A stretch of DNA of 64,000 nt from an uncultured Rickettsiales bacterium (GCA_964436045.1 CAYTBN010000027.1:1409-65408), one strand, 5' to 3'; positions 1-60,540 are shown, counted from the stretch's first letter. The notes: generated from the sequence alone by a model not told the origin. A program made the numbers and translations.

Positions 1-817
1 GGGCCACGGTGATGGCGTGGACATCCTCGTGCCCCACGTCCAGCCCCTCCTCGATCTCGAAGTGGAAGTCCGACTGGTTGTTGAAGTCCACCAGCAGGTA
101 GCTCCCGTCGGGGTACCACAGGTACTCGGCCTCGTAGAGGTTGCCCGAGGGGTCCTCGTAGTGACGGGCAAGGAAGACGTCATCCGGGGTCTCCACGTTC
201 AGGTAGAGACCGTAGGGCTCGCCGTTGACCGTGACCCAGGCGTACCCGGCGCGCGGGGCGGGGATTCCAAGAGCCGCGAACGCCGCAAAGGCCAGCCGCT
301 CCTTGGCGAAGGAGCAGTCGACGACCATGTTGTTCAGGGTCAGCTTCTCCAGGCCGTGGAGGGTCTGGCCGTCGACGAAGCGGTTGATGTCGATCTTGAA
401 CGCGGCCTTGGCGCTCAGGTCCCGGAACGAACCGATGCGTCCCTTGAGGCGGACGCCCACGTCGTCCACCGGCTCGCCGTCGAACACGATGTCGCCCTGC
501 ACGTAGCCGTAGGGGTCGACCCACAGGGAATCGACGGCGGCCGGCTCCAGCTGGATATCGAGGGTGTGGACCGCGTCGAGGGTGAACATCCAGCCCGCTG
601 GATCGTCGACGCCGCCCACGTGCTCCAGCGGCGGCGAGGCGTCGTCGTCGCCGGAGGTGTCGTCGTCGGAGACGTCGTCGTCGGCCGTGTCGTCATCGGC
701 CGGCTCTCCACCCGTGCCGGGGGTGCTCATCACGCCCACCGGGCTGCAGGCGCAGAGCGTCAGCAGCGGGATGGCCAGCGGGGCGATCGGGAGAAGGGAA
801 GCCGGCTCGGGCAGCAT
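1..817 (-). CDS. CotH kinase family lipoprotein (partial; C-terminus lies beyond window start)
   Basis: Minus-strand frame opens at ATG 815-817 and runs to position 1 without a stop. It has a lipoprotein signal (LLTLCAC lipobox) followed by a poly-Asp linker (PADDDTADDDVSDDDTSGDDD). The CotH-like core (LKGRIGSF...AAFKIDINRF...LTLNNMVVDCSFAKERLAF...VTVNGEPYGLYLNVETPDD) is paralogous to the two plus-strand CotH ORFs downstream. Not in the ORF track because no stop falls in the window. Confidence 0.7.
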   Translation of the reverse strand, partial: MLPEPASLLPIAPLAIPLLTLCACSPVGVMSTPGTGGEPADDDTADDDVSDDDTSGDDDASPPLEHVGGVDDPAGWMFTLDAVHTLDIQLEPAAVDSLWVDPYGYVQGDIVFDGEPVDDVGVRLKGRIGSFRDLSAKAAFKIDINRFVDGQTLHGLEKLTLNNMVVDCSFAKERLAFAAFAALGIPAPRAGYAWVTVNGEPYGLYLNVETPDDVFLARHYEDPSGNLYEAEYLWYPDGSYLLVDFNNQSDFHFEIEEGLDVGHEDVHAITVA

Positions 818-916
818 CCGCTCATTCTACCACCGCGCAACCGCCTACCCCCCATTCGCCCGCATCGGGCGATCCTGGTATCTTCAGGTAGGGTAAGTGG
901 GCTGGAGGCGAGACGA

Positions 917-1507
917 ATGGAAAGCTGGACCCTGTTGCGCGGACTGTTGCCCTGGATCGGCATACTCGCCCTGCTGGGCTGCGACGCCGTGATGGACGAC
1001 GACGACGACGCCACGGGCGATGACGACTCTGCGGGTGATGACGACGACGATGACGACGACGACAGCGCGTCGTTCGCCTGGGAGCTGTGCATCAACGAGT
1101 TCATGGCGGCCAACGCGACCACGATCCAGGACGACACCGGCGTTTTCACGGACTGGATCGAGCTGTACAACATGACCGACGAGGACGTGGATCTGGCCGG
1201 GTTCACGATCACGGACAACCTGGACAATCCGGACAAGCACGTGCTGGCCGCGCCCCTGACCGTGCCGGCCCGGGGGCACCTGCTGCTGTGGGCGGACGGT
1301 CTGCCCGATGTGGGCGCCGAGCACCTGGGGTTCCAGCTGGCCCGCGAGGGCGAGGAGCTGGGCCTCTACGACCCGACTGGAACCGTGCTCAACCACCTGG
1401 AGTACGACGAGCAGGCCACCGACTGGTCGGCGGCGCGGATGCCCGACGGCGAGCTGGATGGCTGGGTCATCGACGCCACGCCCACCCCGGGCCTGTCGAA
1501 CGAATGA
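917..1507 (+). CDS. Lamin-tail-domain (LTD) lipoprotein with poly-Asp linker
   Basis: ATG at 917 is preceded by GGAGG. It has a signal peptide with LLGC lipobox, then a DDDDDATGDDDSAGDDDDDDDDD linker. The LTD-like motif is CINEFMAANATT...DWIELYN...ITDN. Its stop overlaps the next start (ATGA). Confidence 0.7.
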   Translation: MESWTLLRGLLPWIGILALLGCDAVMDDDDDATGDDDSAGDDDDDDDDDSASFAWELCINEFMAANATTIQDDTGVFTDWIELYNMTDEDVDLAGFTITDNLDNPDKHVLAAPLTVPARGHLLLWADGLPDVGAEHLGFQLAREGEELGLYDPTGTVLNHLEYDEQATDWSAARMPDGELDGWVIDATPTPGLSNE

Positions 1508-2781
1508 GCGCGCGCATCCCCGTTGCGGTGACGCTCGGCGGTCTGCTCGCCCTCGCGAGCTGCACCCCGGGCGGCCTGGTGCGGCTGGAGGGCATACCCG
1601 AGGATCCACCCGACGCCCCGCTGGAGCACGTGGGCGGCGCGGACCAGCCGGGCGAGCCTCCGCTGGAGGCCGTGGAGGGCGTCGGCGATCTGAGCGCTCC
1701 CATGTTCGCGGGCGACGAGATCCCGACCTTCCACCTGACCCTGTCGACCGCGGCGATGGAGTCCCTGCACCAGGCCTACCTGGACTGGATCTACTCCGGG
1801 ATCGTGTTCACCGAGTACGTCGAGGGTTCGTTCGAGTACGACGGCGTGGTCTACGAGCCGGTGGGGATCCGGCTCAAGGGGCAGGGGTCGGCGCTGGACG
1901 TGTACGACAAGGCCGCGTTCAAGGTGAAGTTCAACGAGTACACCCCCGGCGCGCGCTTCATGGGCCTCGAGTGCCTGACCCTGAACAACATGTCGGTCGA
2001 CTACAGCATGATGCACGAGCGGCTCGCGTACCGGATCTACCGCGAGGCAGGCGTGCCCGCCTCGCGCTCCGGCCACGCGATGGTGACCGTCAACGGTGAG
2101 CTGTACGGGCTGTACGCCAACGTCGAGACCCCGGACATCCACATGATCGAGCGCTGGTTCGAGCGCACCGACGGCACCCTGTTCGAGGGCTGGGACGTGG
2201 ACTTCACCGCCGAGTACATCCCCTACTTCCAGCTGGAGTTCGGGCCGGACGATCGAGACAACCTGTGGGGGCTGGCCGAGGCGCTGGCGACGCCGGGCCC
2301 GCATGCCCTGGAGGTCGCCGAGGAGTACGTCGACCTGCAGGCCTTCCTGCGCTACTGGGCGGTGGGGGCCGTGGTCGGCCAGTTCGACGCCTACCCCTAC
2401 ACCTGGCCCGGCGACGACTTCCACGTCTACGACGATCCCGAGGCGGGCCAGCTGCGCTTCATCCCCTGGGGCGTGGACGAGACGTTCTACTTTCCGACGA
2501 ACTCGGTGGACTACGTCTACGGAGTGCTGGCCGTCCGCTGCCTGGAGTCGGGCACTTGCCGCCAGGCCTGGGAGGCCGAGGTGTGGGCGGTGCACGACAT
2601 GGCGGTAGCCCTGGACTGGGCCGGCGAGTTCGAGACGATCCAGGCCCAGATCGCACCGCTGGTGGCCCAGGACACCATGAAGCCCTACAGCAACTCCGAT
2701 GTGGCGTACTACCAGGCGGTGATGCAAGGCATGATCGAGACCCGCGCGACGGATCTGATCACCCTGATCGGGCCACCGTGA
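1504..2781 (+). CDS. CotH kinase family lipoprotein
   Basis: ATG 1504 overlaps the upstream stop. Lipobox is LALASC. CotH-like motifs include IRLKGQGS, AAFKVKFNEY, LTLNNMSVDYSMMHERLAY, VTVNGELYGLYANVETPD and FIPWGVDETF. Confidence 0.8.
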   Translation: MSARIPVAVTLGGLLALASCTPGGLVRLEGIPEDPPDAPLEHVGGADQPGEPPLEAVEGVGDLSAPMFAGDEIPTFHLTLSTAAMESLHQAYLDWIYSGIVFTEYVEGSFEYDGVVYEPVGIRLKGQGSALDVYDKAAFKVKFNEYTPGARFMGLECLTLNNMSVDYSMMHERLAYRIYREAGVPASRSGHAMVTVNGELYGLYANVETPDIHMIERWFERTDGTLFEGWDVDFTAEYIPYFQLEFGPDDRDNLWGLAEALATPGPHALEVAEEYVDLQAFLRYWAVGAVVGQFDAYPYTWPGDDFHVYDDPEAGQLRFIPWGVDETFYFPTNSVDYVYGVLAVRCLESGTCRQAWEAEVWAVHDMAVALDWAGEFETIQAQIAPLVAQDTMKPYSNSDVAYYQAVMQGMIETRATDLITLIGPP

Positions 2782-4421
2782 CGCCAGCCGTGTCGCGCTT
2801 CGCTTCCCCCCTCCGTTCGCCGATCTGGACCGCCTGCCTGCTGGGTCTGACGAGTTGCATGGGCCCGGGGGGGATCGTGCTGATGCCCGGATCGGGGGCG
2901 GGGGAGCCGCCGCTGGAACAGGTGGGCCCCGCGGCGGTGTCGTCCTGCGATCCGGAGGCCGTGGTCGATCAGCCCTTCCTGACCGAGGGGGACGAGGTCC
3001 AGCTGTCGTTCCACTGCGCATCCGGCGAGCCGGCCGATGCGTTCGAGGCCGACCTGATCAGCTCCGCCGACGGCGCGGAGCTGGACCCGCTGACGTGGTC
3101 CGTGAGCTGGTCGACGGGGTTCGCGGACGGAGGACGCCACGAGTTCCTGCTGTCCGTGCGGCCCGCCGCGGCGGCGGGCGTGGGCCACGACGCCGTACCC
3201 GAGACCGCGGTGGGCACGGTCTGGGTCGCCGACGCCCTCGGCCACCCGGCGAACGAGCCGGTGGTGCCGTCGCTCTACACCGAGGAGTGGGGGCTACCGG
3301 TGCTTCACCTGTTCCCGGGCGGTGAGCTGACCCAGGAACACGTGCCCACCATCATCACGTTCATGGGGCGGACCTACGACGCCGAGATGAAGATCCGCGG
3401 CGCAGCCAGCGTGTACTACCCCAAGAACAGCTACACCCTGCGCTTCGGTGACGAGGATCTGGACACCGGCGAGCTGGGACTCGGCACCAAGGACCACCTG
3501 GTCCTGATCACCAGCTTCGACGACAACAGCTACGTGCGCCAGAAGCTGGCCTACGACCTGTGGGCGGCCATTGCCGATCACTGGCAGCGCGACCGGCTGA
3601 CGCCGCGGACGTTCTTTGCGGTGGTCTATCTGAACGGCGAGTACTGGGGCCTGTTCACCGCCTGCGACCGCATCGACGACCACTTCGCCGAGGAGATGGG
3701 GCTCAGCCGCGAGGGCAACCTCTACAAGGCGATCAACCACGACGCCAACTTCTACAGCACCGGCTACTCGGGCTGGCCCAAGGAGACCCTGCACCAGGGG
3801 TACACCAAGGAGGAGGGGGAGCCGGCGGACGGCGAACCCGGGGCCTTCGACGACCTGGACGAGCTCGTGGCGTGGGCGTCGACCGCCAGCCAGTCCGACT
3901 TCATCGACCAGATGGAGGGCTGGTTCCGGGTGGACGAGTTCATGGACTGGCTGCTGTTCGTCCACTACACGGCGTCCGGCGACTCCGGTGGCAAGAACGC
4001 CTACCTGTACAACGACCTCGAGGCACCGGAGTTCCGCTACGCCCCCTGGGACTTCAACCACTCCTTCGGCCAGGGGTGGACCACCTACCGCATCGAACCC
4101 TACACGTACGACGACTTCACCTGGACCAACGGCATCTTCGCCCACTTCCAGGCCCACCCGGAGACGAGCGACGAGCTGTGGACGCGCTTCGACGAGCTGT
4201 GCGAATCCGGCCCCCTGCACGCGGACTGGTTCACCTCGCGGCTCGACGAGTACTACGCCCGGATCCATCCCTCGGCGCAGCGCGACTGGTCGGTGTGGGG
4301 GGCGTCCTACCTGAGCTACTGGGCAGCCTACAACGACCTGACCTACCCCGAGGAGCGCGCCTACCTCTACGACTGGCTGGCCGAGCGCGACTCCTGGGCC
4401 TGGGCCGATCACCCCCAGTGA
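2778..4421 (+). CDS. CotH kinase family lipoprotein (longer paralog)
   Basis: GTG 2778 overlaps the upstream stop (GTGA). Lipobox is LLGLTSC. The CotH-like core includes KIRGAASVYYPKNSYTLRF, VYLNGEYWGLF, NLYKAINHDANF and APWDFNHSFGQ. Confidence 0.8.
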   Translation: MTPAVSRFASPLRSPIWTACLLGLTSCMGPGGIVLMPGSGAGEPPLEQVGPAAVSSCDPEAVVDQPFLTEGDEVQLSFHCASGEPADAFEADLISSADGAELDPLTWSVSWSTGFADGGRHEFLLSVRPAAAAGVGHDAVPETAVGTVWVADALGHPANEPVVPSLYTEEWGLPVLHLFPGGELTQEHVPTIITFMGRTYDAEMKIRGAASVYYPKNSYTLRFGDEDLDTGELGLGTKDHLVLITSFDDNSYVRQKLAYDLWAAIADHWQRDRLTPRTFFAVVYLNGEYWGLFTACDRIDDHFAEEMGLSREGNLYKAINHDANFYSTGYSGWPKETLHQGYTKEEGEPADGEPGAFDDLDELVAWASTASQSDFIDQMEGWFRVDEFMDWLLFVHYTASGDSGGKNAYLYNDLEAPEFRYAPWDFNHSFGQGWTTYRIEPYTYDDFTWTNGIFAHFQAHPETSDELWTRFDELCESGPLHADWFTSRLDEYYARIHPSAQRDWSVWGASYLSYWAAYNDLTYPEERAYLYDWLAERDSWAWADHPQ

Positions 4422-4461
4422 TCGGTTGCGCTCCGGGTACCGCTATGGGTAGACCCATGGG

Positions 4462-4926
4462 ATGACCGACCCACCCGCCGACATCCTCGAGATCGTGAAT
4501 TCCCGGCTCAGCGGCTTCAACGAGACCCTCGGCCTGCGCTTCACCCGCGCCACCCCCGAGGAATACGCCGCCGAGCTCACCGTCGACGAGCGTCACCTCC
4601 AGCCCTACGGCCTGGTCCACGGCGGTGTCTACGCGTCGATGGTCGAGACCGTCTGCAGTGTGGGCGCTGCGGTCGGCGTGTTCTTCGAGGGCAAGACCGC
4701 GGTCGGCCTGGACAACAGCACGTCGTTCCTGCACGCCGTCCGCGACGGCAAGCTGCGCTGCAGCGCCTCGCCCATCTACCAGGGCCGGCGCACCCAGGTC
4801 TGGGAGGCCCAGATCCACGACGACCGCGACCGGCTGGCCGCCACCGGGCGAGTGCGGCTGCTGGTGCTCGAGTCCGGGGCCAAGGCGGATGGTGAGCGGG
4901 TGGTGCTGATGGGAAAAAAAGACTGA
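4462..4926 (+). CDS. PaaI-family hotdog-fold thioesterase
   Basis: 154 aa. Motifs LQPYGLVHGGVYASMVETV...G and the overall architecture are typical of the PaaI/YbgC 4HBT family. Confidence 0.75.
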   Translation: MTDPPADILEIVNSRLSGFNETLGLRFTRATPEEYAAELTVDERHLQPYGLVHGGVYASMVETVCSVGAAVGVFFEGKTAVGLDNSTSFLHAVRDGKLRCSASPIYQGRRTQVWEAQIHDDRDRLAATGRVRLLVLESGAKADGERVVLMGKKD

Positions 4927-4933
4927 TCCCAGG

Positions 4934-5800
4934 CTACGGAAACTCCACCGGGAAATCCTGCGCTTCCACCCCCAGGTGGACCGTCATCGGCGTGGTCGTC
5001 TCGCCGACCAGGTGGTGCCAGGCGTGGAGGGTGTAGCTGCCGTCCGGGACGCCGCTGAAGTAGTACTTCCCCTCCCAGTCGGTGGTGCCGCAGTAGCCGT
5101 GCTCGCACACCAGCACGAAGGCGATCTCCCAGGGGCGGAGCATGGACTGGATGCGGACGAGGCCGGGCTGGTCGAGGGTCAGCGTGTGGGTGGTGGCCAT
5201 GTAGGTGACGGTGCTCATCTCGTCCAGGGAGACGTGATCGAGCACGGTCTGTTGCCCCTGGTCCAGCAGCGTCACCCGCAGGACCTCGGGGGTGTACAGG
5301 TAGTTCTCGATGGTCAGGGTGGTGCCGATGCCAGCGATGGACACATGGGGCCACAAGGAGCAGCCGCCGTTGGACAGGGAGACCGCGGTCGGGTAGCCGG
5401 CCATGCCCGCGGACACGCCCTCGAGCCAGACCAGGGTGTCCGGGAGGCCCGACATGCCGCCCCCGGAGGTGTAGGGATAGATCGAGTCGCCGCAGACCAT
5501 CCGGTCGCGGAACACGCGGACCTCGGGCGAGACCACGTTCTCGGTCGTGCTGACCACCGCCGTGAAGGAACGGGAGGGGGATGGGTAGGCGTCCGTGAAT
5601 CCGCCCGGGACCGCGATGCCGCTGGGCACCCGGACCGGAGGCGGCGCGAAGCCGGAGGACAGGTGCAGGGTCGAGTGCGCCATCTCGCCCGCGCGGCGAT
5701 CCAGGTCCACCAGGATCCAGATCGCCATGCCCAGCCCGAGGACGGCGAGCAGGATTCGCAGGACGGTACGCAGGGGGCTTCGTTTTTTGTCCGCGCCCAC
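4934..5800 (-). CDS. Membrane-anchored hypothetical protein with carboxypeptidase-regulatory-like C-terminal domain
   Basis: It has an N-terminal TM segment (LRILLAVLGLGMAIWILV). The C-terminus reads YYFSGVPDGSYTLHAWHH, like a CarboxypepD_reg/Cna-B fold. Its start overlaps the upstream UbiB stop. Confidence 0.5.
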   Translation of the reverse strand: MGADKKRSPLRTVLRILLAVLGLGMAIWILVDLDRRAGEMAHSTLHLSSGFAPPPVRVPSGIAVPGGFTDAYPSPSRSFTAVVSTTENVVSPEVRVFRDRMVCGDSIYPYTSGGGMSGLPDTLVWLEGVSAGMAGYPTAVSLSNGGCSLWPHVSIAGIGTTLTIENYLYTPEVLRVTLLDQGQQTVLDHVSLDEMSTVTYMATTHTLTLDQPGLVRIQSMLRPWEIAFVLVCEHGYCGTTDWEGKYYFSGVPDGSYTLHAWHHLVGETTTPMTVHLGVEAQDFPVEFP

Positions 5801-25131: not shown

Positions 25132-25572
25132 TCAGGGCGAGTCGATCACCAGGGTGACGGGGCCATCGTTGGTCAGCTGGACGGTCATGTGGGCGCCGAA
25201 CTCGCCCCGGGAGACCGGGACACCCCGGGATTCGAGATCATCGGCGACCAGCGTCACCAGCGGGCTCGCGTGTGCCGGTGGCGCGGCCGCGACGAAGGAC
25301 GGTCGGCGCCCCTTGCGGCAGTCCCCCAGCAAGGTGAACTGGCTGACGACCAGGACCGCACCGCCCACGTCGAGGACCGAGCGATTCATCTTGCCGGAGG
25401 CGTCCTCGAACACCCGCAATCCCGCGAGCTTGCCCGCGATCCACCGCGCATCGGACTCGCGGTCGTCGTGGCCGACGCCGATCAACGCCAGCAGGCCGGG
25501 GCCGATCGCCCCCACCTCCCTTCCCTCCACGGTCACCCGCGCCCCGGATACTCGCTGCACGACGGCTCGCAT
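25132..25572 (-). CDS. dtd: D-aminoacyl-tRNA deacylase
   Basis: MRAVVQRV...SQFTL...G motifs (Gly-cisPro region). Size about 146 aa from the internal start. Confidence 0.85.
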
Positions 25573-25724
25573 CGTCACCTCCCGGATCGACCCACGATCG
25601 AGGGCCCATGCCACGCTGTCAACCGATTCCGGCGGAGCCAGCGGCCGTGTCGCGTGTTAGAATGGCGGGGCTTCGCACTGGGGACACGGATCTTCGGCGC
25701 CGCGCGCCGGGAGCCTCGACACGA

Positions 25725-26888
25725 ATGACCGACGTCAAGCCACTCGACGATCTGCTGCAGGAGCTCGACAACCTGCCGGACGTGGACGAACAGGATGCGC
25801 CCCGGCCGTCACCCCTGACGGCCGCCAAGATCGACTACCGCGACTACCCCGTCCTCGTCGTGGACGACGAGGAGGAGAACATCCTCGCGTTCCAGCTCAA
25901 CTTCCGCCACGACTTCACCGTCGACGCCGCGACCAGCGGCGCCGAGGCCCTCGAGCGCCTCGAACAACGAACCTACGCGGTGGTGGTCACCGACCAGCGG
26001 ATGCCGGGCATGAGCGGGGTCGATCTGCTCGAGCGGACCGTCGACATCTACCCCCACCTGATCCGGATCATCGTGACCGGGTACACGGACAACCAGAGTT
26101 TGATCGACGCGATCAACATGGGGCGTATCTACAAGTACGTCACCAAACCCTGGAGCCGTGACGAGATGGCGATGACGATCAAGCGCGCCATCGAGGCCTA
26201 CTCGCTGGCCCTGGAGAACGATCGCCTGCTCCTGGAGCTACAGAGCAAGAACGAGGAGCTCGAGCAGACCGTCGCCGAACGCACTCGCAAGCTGCGTGAG
26301 GCCAACGCGCGGCTCCACCAGCTGGCCATCACCGACGGTCTGACCGGGCTGTTCAACCACCGCTACTTCCACGAGAAATGGCGCGAGGAGATCAAGCGCA
26401 GCGAACGCTACGGCGAACCCGTGTCCCTGCTGATCGCGGACGTGGACTTCTTCAAGAACTACAACGACCGACGGGGTCATCCCCGGGGCGACGTGCTGCT
26501 GCGCGACCTGTCGATGCTGCTCGAGCAGAACTTCCGCGAGGTGGACGTGGTCGCCCGCTACGGCGGCGAGGAGTTCGCGATCATCCTGCCGCGCACCGCC
26601 AAGGCCGATGCCGCCCAGCTGGCCGATCGGATCCGCGAGCAGATCGCCGACTCGAAGTTCCCCGACCGCGAGGTCCAGCCTGGAGGCCGGGTGACCACCT
26701 CGTTCGGCCTGGCGGCCTTCCCGGAGGACGGCGCCACCGCCTCGACCGTGCTCGAGCGGGCCGACCAGGCGCTGTACGCGGCCAAGCAGCAGGGTCGCAA
26801 CCGGGTGGTGATCTTCCAGCCGGGCCTCCCCATGCCCCACCCGGACGCCCCGATCTTCTCCAGCGGCGAGTTCAGCAGCGAAGAGTAG
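25725..26888 (+). CDS. Response regulator receiver fused to GGDEF diguanylate cyclase
   Basis: REC domain (VLVVDDEEEN...D...). The GGDEF domain has an RYGGEEF active-site motif and an RxxD-like I-site region. Confidence 0.85.
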   Translation: MTDVKPLDDLLQELDNLPDVDEQDAPRPSPLTAAKIDYRDYPVLVVDDEEENILAFQLNFRHDFTVDAATSGAEALERLEQRTYAVVVTDQRMPGMSGVDLLERTVDIYPHLIRIIVTGYTDNQSLIDAINMGRIYKYVTKPWSRDEMAMTIKRAIEAYSLALENDRLLLELQSKNEELEQTVAERTRKLREANARLHQLAITDGLTGLFNHRYFHEKWREEIKRSERYGEPVSLLIADVDFFKNYNDRRGHPRGDVLLRDLSMLLEQNFREVDVVARYGGEEFAIILPRTAKADAAQLADRIREQIADSKFPDREVQPGGRVTTSFGLAAFPEDGATASTVLERADQALYAAKQQGRNRVVIFQPGLPMPHPDAPIFSSGEFSSEE

Positions 26889-26939
26889 CCACCTGCTGCG
26901 GTCTGGTGCCCGATTGGGTATGCTGCCGCGCGGGAGGCT

Positions 26940-28334
26940 GTGGTGCCCAGAAGAACGCTGACCTTCGTTGCTATCGCCCTTCTCCTGTCCGCGACGTCGG
27001 CCTGCCAGGAGTACGAGCTGTCGCCCCTGCCCGGGAACTACGTGGGCAAGGTGTTCTACTCGGTGGACCTGAACAACTACGACGGGGATGCCACGAACTC
27101 CTCGGCGGACGCCGCGCCCTACACGCTGACCATCAGCAACCCGGCCAACAATCAGGAGCGCGCCACCGTCGAGGTACAGCAGCTGGGGGGCGAGGAGCTG
27201 TACATCAAGGAGACCATCGAACCCGGTACCCTCGAGACCTTCGACATGCCCCGCTGGGACGCGGAGGACAGCTTCCTGGGCAACCGGTCGGTGAACGTGA
27301 CCAGCAGCGTCGCAGTGGCGATCCACCAGTTCAACCCTGCCAACAACGTGGGGGTCTACTCCAACGACGCCTCGCTGTTGTTGCCGAGGGTGGCCCTGGG
27401 TACGCGCTACCGGGCCGCCTGCTGGCCCCAGGGCACGTATCCCGAGCTGCTCGGTGCGGCCGACTACGTGACCGTGGTCGCGACCGCCGCCGACACCACC
27501 GTGACCGTGACTCCGACCGCCGACATCCGCGCCGGTCTGTCCGTACCCGCGACCACGGCTGGCACGCCGCTGTTGGTGACCCTCGACGCGGGCGAGGTGC
27601 TGCAGATCGAGGGCGACAACGCGGCCAGTGGGGTGAGCGACCTGACCGGCTCGCTGATCGAGGCCAGCGCGGCAGTGGTGGTGTTCTCGGGCAACGAGTG
27701 CGCCGAGATCCCGGCGGATTTCGACGCCTGCGACCACATCGAGGAGCAGCTTCTGCCGGTACAGGCCTGGGGAACTCGCTACGTGGCGGTCAAGTTCGCC
27801 GCCCGCGGAAGCGAGACCGATGTGTACCGGGTGATCGCCGACACCGCCGGCACCACCGTCGAGACCGACCCCCCGCTGGACGGAATCCCCGCGACGCTGG
27901 ATGCCGGTCAGTTTCTGGAGTTCGACACCGACCAGGACTTCGTGCTCACGGCGAGCGCTCCGGTGGCGATGGTGCAGTACATGACCGGCTCCACCTGGGG
28001 CGAGGCGGACGTGGGCGACCCGGCGATGGTCGTGTTGGTGCCGCAGGAGCAGTATCTGACGGAGTACATGTTCCTCACCCCGTCAGGCTACCAGGCGGAT
28101 TACGCCAACATCGTGGCGCGAGCGGGCACCGAGGTCAGCATCGACGAGCAGCAGGTCGCGGACTCACTGTGGACGGATCTCTCGGCGGAGGACTTCATGC
28201 TGGCGCGGGTCCGCCTGGAGCCCGGGATTCACCACCTCACCGCCGATCGGGAGGTCGGGCTGGTGGCATACGGGTATGACCAGGAGGTCAGCTACGCCTA
28301 TCCCGGTGGCGCCAACCTGGGCGGTACGGACTAG
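26940..28334 (+). CDS. Large secreted lipoprotein, hypothetical
   Basis: Lipobox LLSATSAC. 464 aa, Thr/Val-rich beta-like repeats. Its stop overlaps the stop of the convergent gene. Confidence 0.55.
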   Translation: MVPRRTLTFVAIALLLSATSACQEYELSPLPGNYVGKVFYSVDLNNYDGDATNSSADAAPYTLTISNPANNQERATVEVQQLGGEELYIKETIEPGTLETFDMPRWDAEDSFLGNRSVNVTSSVAVAIHQFNPANNVGVYSNDASLLLPRVALGTRYRAACWPQGTYPELLGAADYVTVVATAADTTVTVTPTADIRAGLSVPATTAGTPLLVTLDAGEVLQIEGDNAASGVSDLTGSLIEASAAVVVFSGNECAEIPADFDACDHIEEQLLPVQAWGTRYVAVKFAARGSETDVYRVIADTAGTTVETDPPLDGIPATLDAGQFLEFDTDQDFVLTASAPVAMVQYMTGSTWGEADVGDPAMVVLVPQEQYLTEYMFLTPSGYQADYANIVARAGTEVSIDEQQVADSLWTDLSAEDFMLARVRLEPGIHHLTADREVGLVAYGYDQEVSYAYPGGANLGGTD

Positions 28335-28690: not shown

Positions 28691-31246
28691 TCAGGTGCCC
28701 CCGTCCATTTCCAGTAGACGCCGCAGGAGGATGCGTACCTCCGTGGCTTCGCGGCCGTTGGGAGCCAATCCAATATAGGTCTGATACTCGTTGATCGCCT
28801 GGTCGTTGCGCCCGAGTTGCTCGTAGGCCAGGCCCAGGCCGTAGTGCGACTCGGCGTTCATCGAATCCAGATTCACCGCGCTGCGGAAGTTGTCCGCGGC
28901 CTGCACCGCGCTTCCGATCTCGATGTAGGCCCAGCCGAGCCCCCGCAGCGCGCGAGCGTCCTTGCGGTTGGCATCCAGCGCCTTCTGATAGGACTGGATG
29001 GCCTCGGCGTACTGCCGCTTCGCGGCCAGCGCGTCGCCCTCCTGGGTGTAGTTGACCACCGGGTCCGAGTCCCCGCCCACCGCCACGAGTTCGAACGCCG
29101 GGCTCGGCGTCGGCGGCTCGGGCGTCGGTGGCTCGGGCGTCGGTGGCTCGGGTGTCGGCGGCTCGGGTGTCGGCGGCTCGGGCGTCGGCGGCTCGGGCGT
29201 GGGGTCCTCGACCTCGGCCTCTCCCCCGGTCTCGGCTCCGGTCTCGGCTCCGATCTCGGCCCCGGTCTCGGCTCCGGTCTCGGCTCCAGCCTCGGACCCG
29301 GCCCCCTCCGCGGGCGCTCCCCCTACCCAGACGCTGCTCCCCTCCTCCGGATCGGCCTCCCCGCCGGCGGCCGCCGCGCCGTCCTCGGCCACCCAGTCCA
29401 GCTGCCGATCGGTGCTGCTCTTCATCGAACGGACCACGTAGGTCGTTCCCAGGCCGATGGCGATGATCAGGACCGCGGCGCCGACGAAGTACCCCAGGCG
29501 GCCGCCGCTCCCCTCCTCTTCCTCGTCATCGTCGAAGTCGAATCCTTGATCAAATCCCTGGTCGTACTCCTCGGGCTTCGACTCCTCCCAGAGGTCTCCA
29601 GCAGACGAGGCTGCACCCACCGACGGCTCGTCTTCCGCGTCCATCCCCTCCCGGAACGACCGCTCGAAGCGCTCGAATTCCTGGCCCAGGTGCTCCATCT
29701 TCTCGCCGGGCGTCTCCGGGGACGGCTCGGTCGATGAATCGAAGCCGGCCGCGGTCTCGTCCATCGAGTCCCACATCGCCGTGATCTTCTCGTCGAGCAC
29801 GGGGCCGGAATCGGGCGCCCCGGGATCCGGCTCGGGCGGCGATGGCAAGGAGTCGTCGAGGCCCGGCTCTTCGGGATCGGAGCCGGGCTCGGGTTGGAAT
29901 TCGGGCTCCGGCTCGGGCTCGGGCTCCGGCTCGGGCTCGGGCTCCGGCTCCGCATCGGGCTCCGGCTCGGGCTCGGGCTCGGGCTCCGCCTCGGCCACGG
30001 ACCCGGACTCCGGATGCCCCGTCGCCCCCAGATCGTCCGAACTCCAGTCGATGCCGGACGCGCTGAAGTCCGGGCTCTGGCCCACACCCACGGCGGATTC
30101 GAGGCTGTCGTCCCCGCCGTCCGACGACCAGGCGATGGGCGATCCGTCGACCGGAGGCGGTTCCGGGACGGGCTCGTCGGCGACGCTGTCGTCGTCCGCG
30201 TCACGTCCCACCTCGTCACCCTGCAACGAGGGCTCCACCACCACGCTCTGTGCCGACGGGTCGTAGCGCGGCTCCTCGATCCCCTGGGCCGCCAGCCGCG
30301 ACATGGTCTCCTTGGCCGCCCGGGGGATCGGCCCCTGGAGACCATCTCCGGTCAACGCCTCTTGCAGTTCGGCCTCGGTGGGTGCCTGGGCGGAAACGAC
30401 CTCCGGAGACTCGGCCGTGACCATCTCGGCGGTGTTGGGTTCGAGTTCGCCGGTGAGCGCCATCGACGCCGTGTCGCCCCCGTCCGGCGCGACCTCCCCC
30501 GAGCTGCTGCCGACGATGCGGTGCTCTAGGCTGGCGATCTCGTCCGACTCACCGAACTCCCCGCTGGAGTCGCCGGTGCCGCTGTCGACGACCTCGGAGT
30601 ATCCTCCGCTGCTGGGGGCCGCCCGGAACTCGGCGCTCTCGGGTTCGACCAGATCCTCGGGATCCGGGGTTGCGGTGGGATGGGCGAGGTGGACCAGCTT
30701 TTCCTCACGGCCCCCCTCCACGTGCTGCATCACCTCGCGGGTGGCATGGATCTCGGGCTCGTCGTCGCCGCCAGCGTCCCCGCTCTCGTCGCCGCTCTCG
30801 TCTCCGGAGGCCTGCCGGTGCTCGCCGGTCACGTAACCCCGCAGCCGGTCCCGGGTGTACTGAAGCTCACGCCGCGTCTCGCGCAGCAGACGGATCAGGT
30901 CGAAGAACGGCCGCAGCTCGGCCACCCGTCGCACCCGCTCCCAGCTCTCGCCGTCCACCGAGACCTGGTCGGTGGCCAGCACGCGCTTCTCGACGATCCA
31001 GCGCTGGAGGACCGACAGGTCCCGCACGGGGTAGGTCTTGCCTTCCTGGCGGAAGAACAGGCCAGGACCACCGGTGGCGTCGGCGTCGAGCCGACGCACC
31101 TCGTCACCGTCGTTCCGTGCCCCCTCTGGGTGGAACACGGTGAACACGTGGCTACAGGCGGAGCACTTGACCTTCGTCCCGCCTCCGGAGATGCGGTCGG
31201 GGTCGAAGGCATATTCGCTTCGGCAATCGGGGCAGGTGATACGCAC
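28691..31246 (-). CDS. MJ0042-type zinc-ribbon / GYF-like / acidic low-complexity / TM / TPR protein
   Basis: N-terminus [10 protein letters not shown]...KCSACSHVF (MJ0042 finger). A GYF/DUF4339-like segment ([14 protein letters not shown]) follows. Then a long acidic region with (EP)n and (PTPEP)7 repeats, one TM helix and C-terminal TPR repeats. Confidence 0.7.
29101..29204. repeat. Seven tandem 15-bp repeats (GGCTCGGGCGTCGGY) encoding (PTPEP)7 on the minus strand
   Basis: Near-perfect direct repeats seen directly in the sequence, in-frame within CDS 28691..31246. Confidence 0.85.
29903..29990. repeat. About 15 tandem hexamer repeats (GGCTCS) encoding a poly-(Glu-Pro) tract
   Basis: Seen directly. 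In-frame within CDS 28691..31246 ([25 protein letters not shown]). Confidence 0.85.
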
Positions 31247-31338
31247 GGTTCGATTGTACCCCCGGTGGATGGGTCCGTGGTACGTGGCCCCCTTGGCGTG
31301 CCGCCGGACGCGGCCGGCGGTACGCTGGGCTCCTCCGA

Positions 31339-33078
31339 TTAGGCTCCGTCAGCTCCCTGGATCTGGTCCAGCAGATCCTGGGCAGCCGGGACGGATCCTG
31401 CCGCCTTCTCCAGGTACGGCACCGCCGAGTCCTTCTTTCCGCAGCGGTGGTACGACAGACCCATCTTGTAATTGTAGTTCGCGTTCCCCGGGGCTTTCTT
31501 GAGGGCCTCGCGGAAACTGTTGATTCCACCGTTGCAGTCACCGCCGCCGAGGGCCGAGTCCCCGAGGAAGGCCCAGTCCTCGGCCGTGGTCTCCTCGATC
31601 TCCACGGTCTGGGCATCTCCATCGATGGATGTGTCGCCGTCATCGGTCTCGGCCGGCGTGGTCTCCGCCTCTTCGCGCTCGCGCCGCTCGCGCGCCGCCT
31701 CCGTCCGCGCCTCGCGCGCCTCCTTCCGCCGCTCTCGCTCGGCGGCCTCGGCCTCGGGATCCAGCGGCGCGGGCGGGGGCGTGGGATCCTCGCGGGTCGT
31801 GGCGTCCTCACGCTCGATGGGCTGGGGAGTGGGGTCGACCGCCACGTCCGCGGTACCGCCGTTGGTCTCTTCCTCGGCCAGGATCTTTTCGCGCTGCTTG
31901 TCGAGCTCACGCTGGATCCGCTCGGCTTCTTCCGTGCGGATCTTCTCCAGCTCGGCTTCCGAGATGCTCGATCGGGTGCGGTTGTCCTCACCGTCGCCAT
32001 CGCCGCGCATCGCGCTGCGGACGACGACCCCGATCAACAGGAGTGCCAGCACCACCACGACGCCCACGAGCAAGGGGTTGCCCAGGGGCAGTGACCCGCG
32101 CTTGGTGGCCGCCGCAGGTTTCTTGCGGCGGGGGCGGCGGCGACGGGACAGGTCGACCTTCAGGGCGTCGCCACCCTGGAGCTCGTCGAGGGCCGCCTTG
32201 TTCAGCGCAGCCAGGCTGGCGCTGGAGGCCCCGATCGCGACGGCGGCATTCTGCGGCGCCCCCTCGGCGGGAGCTCCTGCGTCCTCCCCGGAGCCCGACT
32301 CGCTCGCAGGCGGCGTCGGCGCAGACCTGGCTGGGGCGGCGTCCGCCAGATCCTCGGCCGCCTGGATCTGCCCGAAGAGCCGGGCGAGGTAGTCCTCGAG
32401 TTCGTCGTCGTTGCCGATGCGCGACCACTCGCGGCCATCGTGGGATATCTGGTCCTCCGCGTTCACCTTGCCGTTGCGGATCGAGCGGCGCAGGGTCGCG
32501 ATATCGGCGAAGTCGTAGGTCAGGCCGATGGCGACCTTGACCTTCCAACGGTCGATCCCCAGCCCCTGGAAGTCCAGGGCCTCGGAAGCCCGCACCGTCT
32601 GGGATCCGGATGGACCCTCCACGTCGGCGGCGACAACCACCTTCTCGGTCACGACCTGCGGTCCCGACGGGACCTCCTCGGGCGACGGCCGGCCGCGCTG
32701 GACGCCGAAGCTCGGCGGCTCGCGGGAACCACCTGGGACCACGTCGGGCTCGCCGCGCGCATCGGCCTCTTCCGCGTAGTCCGTCGAGAAGAGGTCCTCG
32801 GCGCGGAGCCCGCCGGGGAGCTGGGCCGTCATCGGCGTCGGAGCCGTGCCGGAGACCGAGCCACGGGCCGGTCCGGGCGGCGTCACACGCCGGGAGGCCG
32901 GCTGGATCGCGTCGGTCTCCAGCGACACCACGGAGTGGGGGCCCGTCGCCTCCCGATCCTTGTTGAAGATGACGAACACGTGAGAACAACGGGGACAAGT
33001 GATCTTGGCCCCCCTGCCCTCGAGCTTCTTGCCCGGGAGCTTGTATTTCGCCTGGCAGTTCGGACAGGTGATGACCAT
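31339..33078 (-). CDS. MJ0042-type zinc-ribbon / GYF-like / TM / TPR protein (paralog of upstream gene)
   Basis: Start at [12 protein letters not shown]...CPRCSHVF (33078). A GYF-like segment ([14 protein letters not shown]) follows. Then a K/R-rich segment and TM ([18 protein letters not shown]), an acidic/ER-rich region and C-terminal TPR-like repeats. Confidence 0.7.
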
Positions 33079-33285
33079 TTGTTTCCCGAAACGTCTCCGA
33101 GTGGCCGATCTCGACCCTCTACCGTTGGACTCCCCGTCGCGCCGTTTGTTCCAACCGCCGCTCCGTGCCCTTCCCCCGCGAACCCAGTTCGTAAGATTAC
33201 CACACCCAGCACCGTCCCCACGGCCCCCCGGGGGCGGATTTCGCACTTGGATCCATCGTCCACCGCCAGGCTTCCTTGACCCGAA

Positions 33286-40876: not shown

Positions 40877-41719
40877 TCAGGGGCTCAGGGCAACCCGGTG
40901 GGCGGAGATGTCCCCGGTCATGACGACGCCCAGGATCTCACCCTCGAAGCTGCCCTCCATCTCGTCGGAGGCCACGAACGAACCGGCGTAAGCGGTCGGC
41001 AGATCGAACCAGCCGAGGACGGAGATGCCGATCTCCCCGTCGATGGAGTCGCCGAGGATGTCGCCGCTGATCACCAGGTCCAGATCCAGATCCAGGTAGC
41101 CCGCGATGCTGGCGATGCAGGCGCCGGTACCGTCCAGCACCTCGCCGTAGGGGTCGACGATGAAGTCCACGGCCCCCACGCAGGCGCCGGAGATCGGGAC
41201 GCCCTGGATATCGAGGGCGATGCCGACGTTGACCGTTCCCGAGTAGACGCCGGCGTACTCGTGCTGGACCAGGATCCCACCGACCGCGTAGGTCAGCCGG
41301 TCCCCGTTGGGCAGCTCGGTCTCGGCCTTGATCACGTGCTCGCCGACCGGGAAGTCCTCGAACTCGCCGCTGGCGCCCACGTACTCGAAGGACTCGTCCT
41401 GATCGGTGGTCCAGAGGATCTCGTCGTAGCCCGTGGGATCGCCGTTCTCGTCCAGCACCTCGGCGTCCAGCAGCATCGGCGTGCCCAGCGGCACGAAGTC
41501 GCCCGACTCGGGCGAGTACACGACCAGCTCCGCGCCGTCCCACATGGAGTCGTCGTCCCCTGTGTCGTCGTCGTCGTCATCGTCATCGTCGGTCGGCGTG
41601 TCGTCGTCGCCGGTGTCGTCGTCATCGGCCGGAGGTGCCACGAGCCCCGTCTCCGAGCATCCCGCCAGTCCGAAGAGCAGCACGACAGCGAACACGAACA
41701 TGGTGTGCCAGCGACTCAT
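40877..41719 (-). CDS. Lipoprotein with poly-Asp linker
   Basis: Start MSRWHTMFVFAVVLLFGLAGC (lipobox). The linker PPADDDDTGDDDTPTDDDDDDDDDTGDDD follows. Then a beta-rich domain. Confidence 0.55.
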   Translation of the reverse strand: MSRWHTMFVFAVVLLFGLAGCSETGLVAPPADDDDTGDDDTPTDDDDDDDDDTGDDDSMWDGAELVVYSPESGDFVPLGTPMLLDAEVLDENGDPTGYDEILWTTDQDESFEYVGASGEFEDFPVGEHVIKAETELPNGDRLTYAVGGILVQHEYAGVYSGTVNVGIALDIQGVPISGACVGAVDFIVDPYGEVLDGTGACIASIAGYLDLDLDLVISGDILGDSIDGEIGISVLGWFDLPTAYAGSFVASDEMEGSFEGEILGVVMTGDISAHRVALSP

Positions 41720-45620: not shown

Positions 45621-46001
45621 TCAGAGGCTCGGGCCGGTGGGATCCTCGTCTTCCAGATCCTGGAAGGATGGCTGCTCGGGCAGCTCGAGATCCTCGCAGG
45701 TCGGCGCCGCGGCCACCGAGAGGTTGGCGGTGATACACCAATCGTAGAGCGCGTTGCGATCCTCGGTCCGGGCCACGACGAGGGCGCGCTCGAAGCGGTC
45801 CAGGCACTTGGAGTGGTACTCCTCCGCCGAATCCGCGCCCACGCTCTGCCACGTGAGGTCCTCGGTACCGCTGTCGTCGGGCGGCACCACACACCCATTG
45901 TAGAAGTCAGTGATGCTGTCGCAGTAGGTCTGGCACGGCGTGTTGCAGCCGGCGAGCACCAGTCCGGCCAGCGCCGGGATCCACCACCATCGTATGTTCA
46001 T
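45621..46001 (-). CDS. Hypothetical lipoprotein (last gene of Tad-like locus operon)
   Basis: Start MNIRWWWIPALAGLVLAGC. Cys-rich. Its start overlaps the cpaF2 stop (ATGA). Confidence 0.5.
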   Translation of the reverse strand: MNIRWWWIPALAGLVLAGCNTPCQTYCDSITDFYNGCVVPPDDSGTEDLTWQSVGADSAEEYHSKCLDRFERALVVARTEDRNALYDWCITANLSVAAAPTCEDLELPEQPSFQDLEDEDPTGPSL

Positions 46002-47134
46002 TTTTTCAGATCCTCCTTGCGCCGGGCCGCCTCGGCCATGTCGGCCATGGCCTTGGGGAGCGCGATCCCTTGAAGCCGGATGTCCTCGGCGAACGCGGGT
46101 ACCCCGCGACATTCGAGACGGCCGATGGGGCCATCCTTGCCCCGGGCCACCACGCGGTACCGGTAGATATCTGTCACCTGATACGAGTTGTCCTTGGTAA
46201 GCGTCAGCACCTCGGAGACGTGGGTCACCTTGCGGGTCCCGTCGGGGAAGCGCTGGATCTGAACCAGCAGGTCGATGGACGACGAGATCTGGGACCGCAG
46301 CGCATGGAGCGGCAGTTGCACATCGCTCATCATGCACAGGGTCTCGATTCGGGCCAGGGCATCGTGGGGGTTGTTGGCGTGGGTGGTGCTCATCGAGCCC
46401 CGGTGACCCGATGTCATCGCCTGGACCAGGTCCAGCGCCTCGGGACCGCGCACCTCGCCGATCACGATCCGATCGGGCCGCATCCGCAGGCTCGTGCGCA
46501 GCAGATCGCGCATGGAGACCTCGCCCCTGCCGTCCCGGTCCGGCGGCCGCGTCTCCAGCGTGATCACGTGGGGCTGCTGCAGCTGGAGCTCGCTGCTGTC
46601 CTCGAGCACGAGGATCCGCTGGTCGAGGGGGATGCGCGTCGACAGCACGTTGAGCAGCGAGGTCTTCCCCGAGCCGGTCCCACCGGTGACCAGCAGGTTG
46701 CGGGAGCTCGCGACGCAGACGCCGAGGAACTCCGCCGTCTCCTCCGACAAGGTCTGCAGCTGGACCAGCTTTTCGATGTTCATCACCTCGCGCTGGAACT
46801 TGCGGATCGCCAGGTAGATGCCTTGCCGGGCAACCGGCGGCATGATCACGGTCACCCGGGCACCGTCGGGCAGGCGGGCGTCGAGCAAGGGCTGCTCGGC
46901 ACTGATGCTCTTGCCCACGAACTGGGCGATGTTGCGCACCGCGGAATCCAGCGCGGCCTCGTCGGGGAACCGCAGCTGGGTCTGGTGCAGTCGCCCCGCC
47001 CGCTCGACGTACACCTCGCTGGCGCCGTTCACCAGGATGTCGGAGACCTTGGGATCCGCCAGCGCCTGGGACACCGGTTGGAGGTGGTCCCGCAGGGTCT
47101 GCGCGAAGATCTCGTTCAGGGATACCTGCGCCAC
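45998..47134 (-). CDS. CpaF/TadA-family secretion ATPase (paralog 2, no FHA domain)
   Basis: Walker A is GGTGSGKTSLLNVL. T2SSE motifs are IVIGEVRGPEALD and MTSGHRGSMSTTHAN. GTG start at 47134 is supported by GGGGAG 7 nt upstream; the track ATG at 47191 would overlap the upstream gene by 56 nt. Confidence 0.8.
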   Translation of the reverse strand: MAQVSLNEIFAQTLRDHLQPVSQALADPKVSDILVNGASEVYVERAGRLHQTQLRFPDEAALDSAVRNIAQFVGKSISAEQPLLDARLPDGARVTVIMPPVARQGIYLAIRKFQREVMNIEKLVQLQTLSEETAEFLGVCVASSRNLLVTGGTGSGKTSLLNVLSTRIPLDQRILVLEDSSELQLQQPHVITLETRPPDRDGRGEVSMRDLLRTSLRMRPDRIVIGEVRGPEALDLVQAMTSGHRGSMSTTHANNPHDALARIETLCMMSDVQLPLHALRSQISSSIDLLVQIQRFPDGTRKVTHVSEVLTLTKDNSYQVTDIYRYRVVARGKDGPIGRLECRGVPAFAEDIRLQGIALPKAMADMAEAARRKEDLKK

Positions 47135-47135
47135 G

Positions 47136-51019: not shown

Positions 51020-51036
51020 GGGTCCGCGCTGCTCGT

Positions 51037-51945
51037 TCACACCAGGTCCCCGTTCATGTAACGCACGATCAGCGGGCCGAACATGGTCAGGAACACCGCG
51101 ATCAAGATCATCAGGATCGGGAACAGGATCTTGATGGTCGCCTCGGCTGCGATCTTCTCGGCCCGCTGGGTCCGCTTCAACCGGTTGGCCTGGGCCTGCA
51201 CCTGGAGGATCCGGGACAGCGGCGTCCCCATCGCCTCGGCCTGCACCACCGCGCCGACCACGGAGGTGACGTACTCGGACTGGATTCGATCCGACATGTT
51301 CAGCAGGGCCTCGCGCCGGGTCACACCGAGCCGGATCTCCTGCAGCACGTAGTGCAGCTCCTCGATCAGCGGGCCCTTCTGGCTCTCCTTGCTGACCACC
51401 GAGTCCAGGGCGGTGTTGAAGTCCAGCCCGGCCCCCAGGCTCAAGCTCAGCAGGTCGAGCACGAAGGGCAGGTGGCGGTTGACCGCCGACAGCCGGCGAA
51501 TGATCAGATCCTCCATGTAGAGGAAGGGCAGGTAGGCGCTGATCATCCCCGGGATCATCGCCAGCAATGGGCTGGCGCCGCCGAGCCCCACCGCGGTGAA
51601 GGCGATGCCGAACAGCATGCCGCTGATCCCGGCACACACGCAGGTGGCCAGGAACTCGTCGGGGGTGAATCCGCCCGGGTGACCGGCGCGGGCCAGCTTG
51701 ACCTTGAGTCCCGCTCGGACCTTGTCCAGATCCAGCGTCCCGATCCAGTAGGTGGGGATGAAGATCAGGATCCGGAGCATCACGTAGGCCTGGTTGCTGT
51801 CGGCCAGCTGCTGGCGCTTGAAAGCAACGAACCCCTTCTCGGGCGCCTCGCCGTCCCAGTCCTCGTCGGGGGCCATCGCCCGCACGGCCGCGTAGACCGC
51901 CAGGAACAGGACCGCGGATGCGAACAGGCCGTAGATGTACAGCAT
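51037..51945 (-). CDS. TadC/GspF-like inner-membrane platform protein
   Basis: T2SSF-domain features (LGAGLDFNTALDSV...QAEAMGTPLSRIL) and three TM segments. Confidence 0.8.
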   Translation of the reverse strand: MLYIYGLFASAVLFLAVYAAVRAMAPDEDWDGEAPEKGFVAFKRQQLADSNQAYVMLRILIFIPTYWIGTLDLDKVRAGLKVKLARAGHPGGFTPDEFLATCVCAGISGMLFGIAFTAVGLGGASPLLAMIPGMISAYLPFLYMEDLIIRRLSAVNRHLPFVLDLLSLSLGAGLDFNTALDSVVSKESQKGPLIEELHYVLQEIRLGVTRREALLNMSDRIQSEYVTSVVGAVVQAEAMGTPLSRILQVQAQANRLKRTQRAEKIAAEATIKILFPILMILIAVFLTMFGPLIVRYMNGDLV

Positions 51946-54406: not shown

Positions 54407-54443
54407 CGCTAACCGATCCTCCGTTCGTCGCGCCGACGGGCCA

Positions 54444-55613: not shown

Positions 55614-55620
55614 GTCAACC

Positions 55621-56439: not shown

Positions 56440-56503
56440 AGGACCTCCCTGGGGATCGATTCCGGATTCCAGGAGCGCGGGGATTGGGGACGCCCCGAAG
56501 GCG

Positions 56504-60423: not shown

Positions 60424-60520
60424 CTTATCGGGGCCCTGGCGCTGCCGGGACGGTTTTTTGCAAACTCCTCGCATCCGCGCTGCCCGCGCACGGGGTTGCG
60501 CACGGAGGCGCACACGTTTC

Positions 60521-60540
60521 TTTAATATTTACAGTAACTT
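60521..60540 (-). promoter_or_regulatory. AT-rich island (TTTAATATTTACAGTAACTT) in about 190-nt intergenic gap; candidate promoter for the pseudopilin/secretin operon
   Basis: This is the only strongly AT-rich 20-mer in a >68% GC context. It lies upstream (minus-strand sense) of the 59452..60423 gene. Confidence 0.35.

Follow-up and report, generated by a model that had tools for sequence, protein, structure and literature searches.

What do CotH-family proteins do once they have been exported from the cytoplasm, and from which donor would they take a phosphoryl group there? The question is raised by a 64,000-nucleotide stretch of DNA, hereafter the window, that was deposited as part of a genome of an uncultured Rickettsiales bacterium (GCA_964436045.1, CAYTBN010000027.1:1409-65408). 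In its first 4,421 nucleotides, three genes for CotH proteins, here called CotH-A, CotH-B and CotH-C, stand together with a gene for a lamin-tail domain (LTD) lipoprotein. The spore-coat enzyme of Bacillus is the only bacterial CotH kinase to have been biochemically characterised in the literature searched. Among bacteria that do not sporulate, exported CotH proteins are widespread and known only as annotations. An earlier note on this DNA had considered the cluster as a possible set of spore-coat kinases. On the analysis reported here, the functional reading of the locus should shift to a conserved CotH/LTD module of the cell envelope, with one rewired paralogue and a possible link to polyphosphate. 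The locus places a canonical CotH active site next to one that has been systematically rewired, which makes for a clean natural comparison, and it provides a fission/fusion link between CotH and the LTD module.

Three CotH proteins and their active sites

The region 1-4421 holds four genes, and a third-position GC content of 0.91-0.94 marks all four open reading frames (ORFs) as coding. CotH-A is read on the minus strand (2..817, with its ATG at 817 and a third-position GC content of 0.93) and is cut by the window edge, its N-terminal 272 residues being visible; its orthologues have a full length of 434 residues. A divergent intergenic region of 99 bp (818..916, as delimited by the gene coordinates), presumed to contain both promoters, separates it from three plus-strand genes that code for the LTD lipoprotein (917..1507, 196 residues), CotH-B (1504..2781, 425 residues) and CotH-C (2778..4421, 547 residues, with a GTG start). 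An ATGA at 1504-1507 is common to the stop codon of LTD and the ATG start codon of CotH-B, and a GTGA at 2778-2781 to the stop codon of CotH-B and the GTG start codon of CotH-C. The latter 4-bp overlap is also present in two relatives (loci L001 and L007) whose genes were called independently. LTD, CotH-B and CotH-C are thus shown by their arrangement to form a coupled operon, whose products are predicted to be co-translated lipoproteins. Scans of positions 1-5200 for sigma-70-like promoters and intrinsic terminators returned none, such scans being uninformative at a G+C content of ~66-70%.

Profile searches placed all four proteins far above the gathering cut-offs. Against PF08757 (cut-off 23.8 bits), the matches were E=6.5e-22 and 78.9 bits for CotH-A, E=5.1e-32 and 112.1 bits for CotH-B, and E=5.6e-53 and 181 bits for CotH-C. 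The LTD protein matched PF00932 with E=5.4e-13 and 49.7 bits (cut-off 34.3), over profile positions 7-107 of 109. An NCBIfam search with the four cluster proteins gave zero matches. The layout described in the earlier note, with one divergent and partial CotH-like ORF, two co-directional ones, an LTD gene upstream of the pair and ATGA/GTGA overlaps, agrees with these coordinates. Its description of the three CotH proteins as paralogous holds well for CotH-A and CotH-B, which are 39% identical (E=9e-47), but less so for CotH-C, which belongs to a distant subfamily and is 23% identical to CotH-B (E=6e-8).

In B. subtilis CotH, residues D228 and D251 have been found to be essential by experiment (PMC7821199). 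Judged by alignment and residue spacing, their counterparts in the B. cereus CotH chain of PDB entry 5JD9 are D224 and D247, which lie in the motifs 'nfDgfvhN' and 'pWDyD'. CotH-C matches this chain by sequence with E=2.9e-16. Its AlphaFold2 model, which has a mean predicted local distance difference test (pLDDT) score of 90.7, matches it in Foldseek with a target-normalised template modelling (TM) score of 0.87 (E=1e-22). Residues R207, K216, D402, N407, W424 and D425 of CotH-C are equivalent to R46, K55, D224, N229, W246 and D247 of B. cereus CotH. In a set of 121 sequences that comprises CotH-C and 120 homologues and spans 44-100% identity, these six mapped catalytic positions are kept in 118-121 members, and both D425 and N407 in all 121. 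The two catalytic motifs, D402-SGGK-N407 and P423-W-D425, were located by alignment to 5JD9 at 3981..4052 (plus strand). The secondary structure of the model further reveals an N-terminal all-beta domain of Ig/cadherin-like type, at residues ~57-151 (2946..3230, plus strand), with invariant cysteines C57 and C80. It is on this module that the Foldseek matches ranking after CotH, namely the Ig-like domains of Rib, cadherin and dystroglycan, are found.

For CotH-A, the ATP-site lysine, K137, is visible in the window, and the catalytic aspartate lies beyond its edge and is present in the orthologues. Canonical D..NN and PWDLD motifs are found in the CotH-A orthologues of loci L001, L007 and L014, and the Mg-binding aspartate and the asparagine are kept in 11 of 14 CotH-A-type proteins. 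CotH-C and CotH-A are thereby shown, as far as residues go, to be catalytically canonical CotH kinases. Like Bacillus CotH, the three window proteins belong to PF08757; the models of CotH-B and CotH-C have its atypical kinase fold (TM 0.83-0.87), and CotH-C and CotH-A keep its catalytic Asp, Asn, Mg-binding Asp and Lys. Unlike it, the window proteins come from a diderm bacterium and are predicted to leave the cytoplasm as lipoproteins rather than to stay in that of a mother cell, they are only 16-21% identical to it, and they carry extra Ig-like modules or are associated with LTD modules. Their cluster is also without Ser-rich, CotB- or CotG-like substrates nearby.

CotH-B departs from this pattern. 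Its AlphaFold2 model (pLDDT 88.5) has the complete CotH kinase fold, which Foldseek aligned to 5JD9 with a target-normalised TM score of 0.83, a root-mean-square deviation of 2.8 Å and E=4e-19, followed in rank by the PI3K, HipA and CtkA kinase folds. Its ATP-site lysine K136 (B. cereus K55) and its catalytic-base aspartate D295 (B. cereus D224) are kept in 120-121 of 121 family members. However, at the DFG-like position of the Mg-binding aspartate (B. subtilis D251, B. cereus D247), Gly323 is found in all 121 sequences, and a glycine in 87 of the 88 sequences of a second alignment. The position of B. cereus N229 is occupied by Ser or Thr in one alignment and by Asp in another (77/88), next to an invariant PGDD, in a segment where the aligner is unsure. 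At the position of B. cereus D249, all 121 sequences retain the aspartate, and the next residue is an invariant glutamate. Two invariant acidic motifs, PGD304D305 and G323-x-D325-E326 (GxDE), are new in the clade. They lie in the variant catalytic segment FD295AYPYTWPGD304D305 ... PWG323VD325E326, which the alignments place at 2383..2481 (plus strand), and the invariant residues of the family comprise K136, D295, D304, D305, G323, D325, E326, C346 and C352.

The presence of the glycine in every family member together with the gain of invariant acidic motifs argues for a conserved and selected alternative active site, rather than for random decay. On these alignments CotH-B is a conserved active-site variant representing a large clade, and not a canonical kinase. 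The earlier note had treated all three proteins as kinases, a label that, in its canonical sense, does not extend to CotH-B. The comparison with B. cereus CotH that it had proposed gave conserved catalytic residues in CotH-C and in the CotH-A orthologues, and revealed the loss of the Mg-binding aspartate and the replacement of the asparagine in CotH-B.

The LTD partner and the lipoprotein signals

The LTD gene product consists of a lipobox, a poly-Asp linker and a lamin-tail domain of Ig-like type. Many homologues of CotH-B and CotH-C are single LTD-CotH proteins, and the LTD was N-terminal in all nine fusions tested. One such fusion, P0159, is related to both window proteins: its N-terminal LTD is 51% identical to the window LTD (E=1e-37), and its CotH part is 46% identical to CotH-B. 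The LTD gene and CotH-B therefore correspond to a fusion protein divided over two genes, and most probably their products function as a single unit, this relationship being the strongest available evidence that they work together. In this unit the LTD would be a targeting or binding module. A comparable architecture, LTD-LTD-Fn3-CotH, has been described for the cellulosomal protein Cthe_0239 of C. thermocellum (PMC6083626). Both cases combine a lamin-tail domain with an extracytoplasmic CotH domain, the same architecture being split in the window over two coupled genes. In contrast, proteins of the Cthe_0239 type are dockerin-borne and Gram-positive, whereas those of the window are predicted to be lipid-anchored and include several paralogues.

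With [LVI][ASTVI][GAS]C as the criterion, lipoboxes were read in LTD (LLGC, Cys22), CotH-B (LASC, Cys20) and CotH-C (LTSC, Cys27), and the lipobox cysteine is conserved in at least 90% of the CotH-B and CotH-C families. In CotH-A, the corresponding stretch, LTLCAC (Cys22/24), is non-canonical and lacks a positive n-region, so that its lipoprotein status is only probable. The claim that every member of the cluster carries a lipobox stands for three of the four proteins and is probable for the fourth. The two poly-Asp linkers that had been reported were recovered by translation: one covers residues 27-52 of LTD (995-1072, plus strand), and the other, a poly-Asp/Thr/Gly linker, residues 31-63 of CotH-A (629..727, minus strand), where it is followed by the motif PPLEHVGG.

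Linkers of this type are not restricted to the cluster. Long poly-Asp linkers with D/T/G/A composition also come directly after the lipobox cysteine of unrelated lipoproteins, one in the window (40877-41719, minus strand) and two in L001 (1416-2396 and 3826-5916, both minus strand). The window protein is without a Pfam match and reads MSRWHTMFVFAVVLLFGLAGC-SETGLVAPPADDDDTGDDD... The idea that the linkers are a feature specific to the cluster was rejected on these grounds, and they look like a style of tether used throughout the lineage. Just past the linker, all three CotH proteins also display the short sequence motif PP(L/V)E(H/Q)V(G/D)G (residues 62-69 of CotH-A, 38-45 of CotH-B and 43-50 of CotH-C). 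It is found as well in L001, L007 and L014, and is absent from the LTD and beta-helix proteins. It is limited to the close lineage of the window, with 5 of 78 B-type, 4 of 13 A-type and 6 of 12 C-type proteins, against a background of 1.5% per 110-residue window. It might mark a place where all three are docked or processed.

The gene set in related genomes

The neighbourhood of CotH-B was surveyed by a profile scan in which each species was represented by one genome. The scan yielded 79 loci, of which all ORFs were translated and searched with the seed proteins. Partners were counted within 10 kb of CotH-B, and 26 of the 79 loci have full 10-kb flanks. An LTD was found in 63 of the 79 loci (80%; in 19 of the 26 with full flanks), as the immediately upstream gene in 32 cases and fused to CotH-B in 23. 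A beta-helix (NosD-like) lipoprotein is present in 39 loci (49%; 12 of 26), and a second, non-B CotH in 32 (41%; 13 of 26). A VTC protein, of the polyphosphate-polymerase type, and a DUF4956 protein occur together in 23 loci (29%), the respective figures for full flanks being 10/26 for VTC and 11/26 for DUF4956. Pfam matches confirm both assignments, VTC (PF09359) and DUF4956 (PF16316), in L027, L057 and L068. L027 holds a single co-directional, Pfam-confirmed array, VTC-DUF4956-betahelix-LTD-CotH-B-CotH-C-CotH-A, in which the gene set of the window is joined to the VTC pair.

The LTD-B-C triad is kept down to 43-55% identity (L012, L013, L078 and L027). In relatives at 75-85% identity (L001, L007, L011 and L014), the divergent arm that the window edge interrupts extends past CotH-A to another LTD lipoprotein and then to a beta-helix lipoprotein of ~690 residues, with repeats of the NosD/pectinesterase type. 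The part of the arm beyond the left edge corresponds to 2830-7273 of L007 and 3826-5916 of L001 (both minus strand), and the poly-Asp linker of its beta-helix lipoprotein is very long. The gene that comes next in L007 codes for a 743-residue protein with TGase_elicitor and HHH_3 domains, the latter a DNA-binding helix-hairpin-helix. At the other end of the cluster, a 4HBT thioesterase gene (4462-4926) lies downstream of CotH-C. It was left out of the system because it adjoins CotH-C in L007 but not in L001.

Lipobox-like signals, scored in the relatives by a crude regular expression, were found in 58 of 66 LTD proteins, 58 of 65 CotH-B, 39 of 45 beta-helix proteins, 14 of 18 CotH-A and 13 of 15 CotH-C. 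Among the VTC relatives only 2 of 25 have such a signal, and the apparent hits in DUF4956 proteins resemble internal transmembrane segments. A split topology is thus predicted, with LTD, CotH and beta-helix proteins exported as lipoproteins, VTC in the cytoplasm and DUF4956 in the membrane.

All 79 loci come from metagenome-assembled genomes (MAGs), with the exception of one complete Sorangium genome, that of So ce131, whose match is 35% identical and which is the only cultured genome among the top 80 hits. The MAGs are labelled Myxococcota, Kofleriaceae, Polyangia, Myxococcales or with generic names of the Proteobacteria type, and some are evidently mislabelled bins. The wide taxonomic spread suggested by names such as 'uncultured Rickettsiales' and 'Enterobacterales' was rejected, the same gene family standing beside Myxococcota, Kofleriaceae and Polyangia labels. 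The cassette-bearing MAGs deposited under these two names and as 'Klebsiella pneumoniae' (L061) are probably mislabelled or chimeric bins. As for the window itself, its Obg protein is 100% identical to a partial ObgE labelled 'MAG: Myxococcota bacterium' at NCBI. Identity is 64-85% in a handful of metagenomic relatives and then falls to ~56% in matches named from several phyla. Judged by this marker, the host is a deep, uncultured lineage of Myxococcota. The earlier description of the genome as likely myxobacterial is therefore borne out at the level of the phylum, but gives no reason to assume fruiting bodies or myxospores. Taken with the survey, the comparison shows that the same gene set, made of a predicted beta-helix lipoprotein, LTD, CotH-B and extra canonical CotH copies, recurs across Myxococcota, and that roughly one locus in three has it in a single array with VTC and DUF4956.

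A related association has been reported in Gram-positive bacteria, where CotH, VTC, DUF4956 and DUF4832 genes form a conserved accessory group next to pel exopolysaccharide loci (Whitfield et al., 10.1101/768473), as exemplified by SIR_1592-1594 of S. intermedius (PMC12345266). The 23 related loci mentioned above, such as L027, resemble this group in that a secreted CotH occurs there together with VTC, DUF4956 and also DUF4832 or GH114. The window and its closest relatives differ in having neither VTC nor DUF4956 nearby. The Myxococcota version moreover adds LTD, the beta-helix lipoprotein, several CotH paralogues and the GxDE variant, and has no adjacent pel genes. Literature searches brought up no work on the cassette of Myxococcota, on its GxDE variant or on bacterial VTC and DUF4956 proteins, nor any functional studies of CotH with LTD or of CotH with VTC/DUF4956.

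Possible function and genomic setting

The reading favoured here, held at a little less than even confidence, is that of a bipartite, envelope-anchored CotH module that modifies an extracytoplasmic polymer, includes CotH-B as a variant member and has a possible link to polyphosphate. The window locus would be the right-hand part of this module, with CotH-A, LTD and the beta-helix protein as its mirror-image arm. The module might phosphorylate a polymer outside the cytoplasmic membrane, which could be a matrix polysaccharide, an envelope protein or polyphosphate itself. CotH-C and CotH-A would be the catalytic subunits. CotH-B could be an enzyme whose use of metal or donor is altered, or else a non-canonical partner of the adjacent canonical kinase, in the manner of Fam20A. 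Where VTC and DUF4956 are present, they might make and export polyphosphate as a donor or a substrate. The conserved partners are the NosD/pectinesterase-like beta-helix protein, LTD, VTC, DUF4956 and DUF4832, and not coat or developmental genes, which argues for modification of an envelope or matrix polymer rather than for phosphorylation of a myxospore coat.

Bacillus CotH acts in the ATP-containing cytoplasm of the mother cell. ATP is not expected outside the cytoplasm, and the recurrent link with VTC and DUF4956 therefore suggests exported polyphosphate as the donor or the substrate of the module, a testable hypothesis on a question that the earlier note had left unaddressed. If polyphosphate were the donor, it would represent a new route of extracytoplasmic phosphorylation in bacteria, and it would provide a function for the CotH/VTC/DUF4956 genes found next to the pel biofilm loci of streptococci and clostridia. 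Otherwise, the cluster would be an ordinary set of paralogous surface lipoproteins.

Several points weigh against this reading. No genes for VTC, DUF4956, DUF4832, GH114 or polysaccharide synthesis were detected by Pfam among the ~30 larger ORFs of the window, and, GH114 apart, the same holds for the 10 kb to the left of the cluster in L001 and L007. For this locus, the polyphosphate link is consequently drawn from homologous gene sets alone. A second CotH is missing within 10 kb of CotH-B at many loci, which indicates that an obligate B/C pair is not general. The residue mapping is anchored in the two mutated residues of B. subtilis CotH and in an alignment to a transcribed fragment of 5JD9. 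The lipid anchoring of the proteins and their eventual location, in the periplasm or at the cell surface, are predictions read from the sequences. Enzymatic data for bacterial CotH proteins other than that of Bacillus were not found in the literature searched, and the substrate of the module remains a putative polymer.

Rather unlikely, on present evidence, is an arrangement in which CotH-B would be inert and, with its LTD adaptor, would act as an allosteric or scaffolding partner of the coupled CotH-C, the two forming a kinase/pseudokinase pair. Fam20A activates Fam20C in this way in a related family of secretory-pathway kinases. The loss of the DFG-like aspartate throughout the CotH-B family, the overlap of the B and C genes here and in relatives, the persistence of the LTD-B-C triad in distant loci and the second CotH in 13 of 26 full-flank loci are all consistent with such pairing. 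So is a degenerate, distant subgroup of LTD-fused B-like genes (L075 and L079-L084), in which both the catalytic aspartate and the DFG-like aspartate are gone (HWGGWPY...PEGINDAF). Four of the seven (L079, L081, L083 and L084) have the degenerate gene beside a canonical M-type CotH with a MopE-type motif, and these neighbours look like candidate kinase/pseudokinase pairs. CotH has been described as distantly related to Fam20C (PMC7821199), and both systems comprise extracytoplasmic kinase-like paralogues, one of them non-canonical and encoded or expressed with a canonical one. This remains an analogy, however: the altered residues differ, and CotH-B is often without a canonical partner. Indeed, half of the full-flank loci have no second CotH within 10 kb, and CotH-B is usually accompanied there by LTD and the beta-helix protein. 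Furthermore, CotH-B keeps the catalytic-base aspartate and the lysine and gains the invariant PGDD and GxDE motifs, which suggests that metal binding and catalysis are retained rather than that the site is dead.

The favoured module could also be extended to an undescribed system of extracytoplasmic phosphorylation, a proposal that must be regarded as improbable. In it, VTC and DUF4956 would export polyphosphate, and the lipid-anchored CotH proteins would use it in place of ATP on matrix polysaccharide or envelope proteins, with the beta-helix protein alongside as a polymer-binding component and the GxDE clade retuned for a polyphosphate-metal donor. The enzymes of this system would be a canonical CotH and the GxDE variant with its LTD adaptor, and they would phosphorylate or polyphosphorylate their acceptor.

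A still slimmer chance is given to the possibility that the proteins are non-enzymatic, and that they would serve as surface adhesins or structural proteins in which CotH is a binding module, as reported for the CotH invasins of Mucorales, and the LTD and Ig-like domains attach to prey, surfaces or matrix. Predicted exported lipoproteins with Ig-like modules would fit this role, and fungal CotH proteins are secreted or glycosylphosphatidylinositol-anchored at the surface (PMC9973265). Against it, the catalytic Lys, Asp, Asn and Asp are invariant or nearly so in the CotH-C family, and CotH-B has an invariant acidic set of its own. Such constancy points to selection on the active site, which disfavours a purely adhesive function.

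The proposal of the earlier note that the three lipoproteins are extracellular or envelope kinases of myxospore-coat proteins, as Bacillus CotH is of CotB and CotG, is very unlikely, with no support from context, taxonomy or partners: no sporulation, developmental or coat-like substrate genes were found among the scanned window ORFs or in the related loci, the host belongs to a deep uncultured lineage with no sign of spore formation, a single cultured genome appears among the top profile hits, the partners that are conserved belong to the beta-helix, VTC and DUF4956 families, and the predicted export as lipoproteins is unlike the situation of Bacillus CotH in the mother-cell cytoplasm. The affiliation of the genome with Myxococcota, the CotH family and fold, and the canonical residues of CotH-C and of the CotH-A orthologues are on its side, as is the kinase activity on coat proteins that has been proven for Bacillus CotH (PMC7821199).

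The Pfam scan of the larger ORFs assigned the remainder of the window to housekeeping genes, Zn-ribbon/TPR proteins, a Tad pilus cluster and unrelated proteins. The Tad/Flp-type cluster (45998-60528, minus strand) codes for two T2SSE ATPases, one of them with an FHA domain, T2SSF, a secretin, RcpC/CpaB and a TadE/G-like protein, and also for an 821-residue protein with a double FHA domain and TPR repeats. A gene at 26889-28334 (plus strand), whose product matches the IgGFc_binding domain (PF17517, E=2e-83) over its full length, lies directly 3' of a gene for a response-regulator diguanylate cyclase (25347-26888). Finally, two adjacent genes at 28691-33285 (minus strand) code for proteins of 885 and 648 residues that each start with a PF13717 zinc ribbon, one of them ending in C-terminal TPR repeats.

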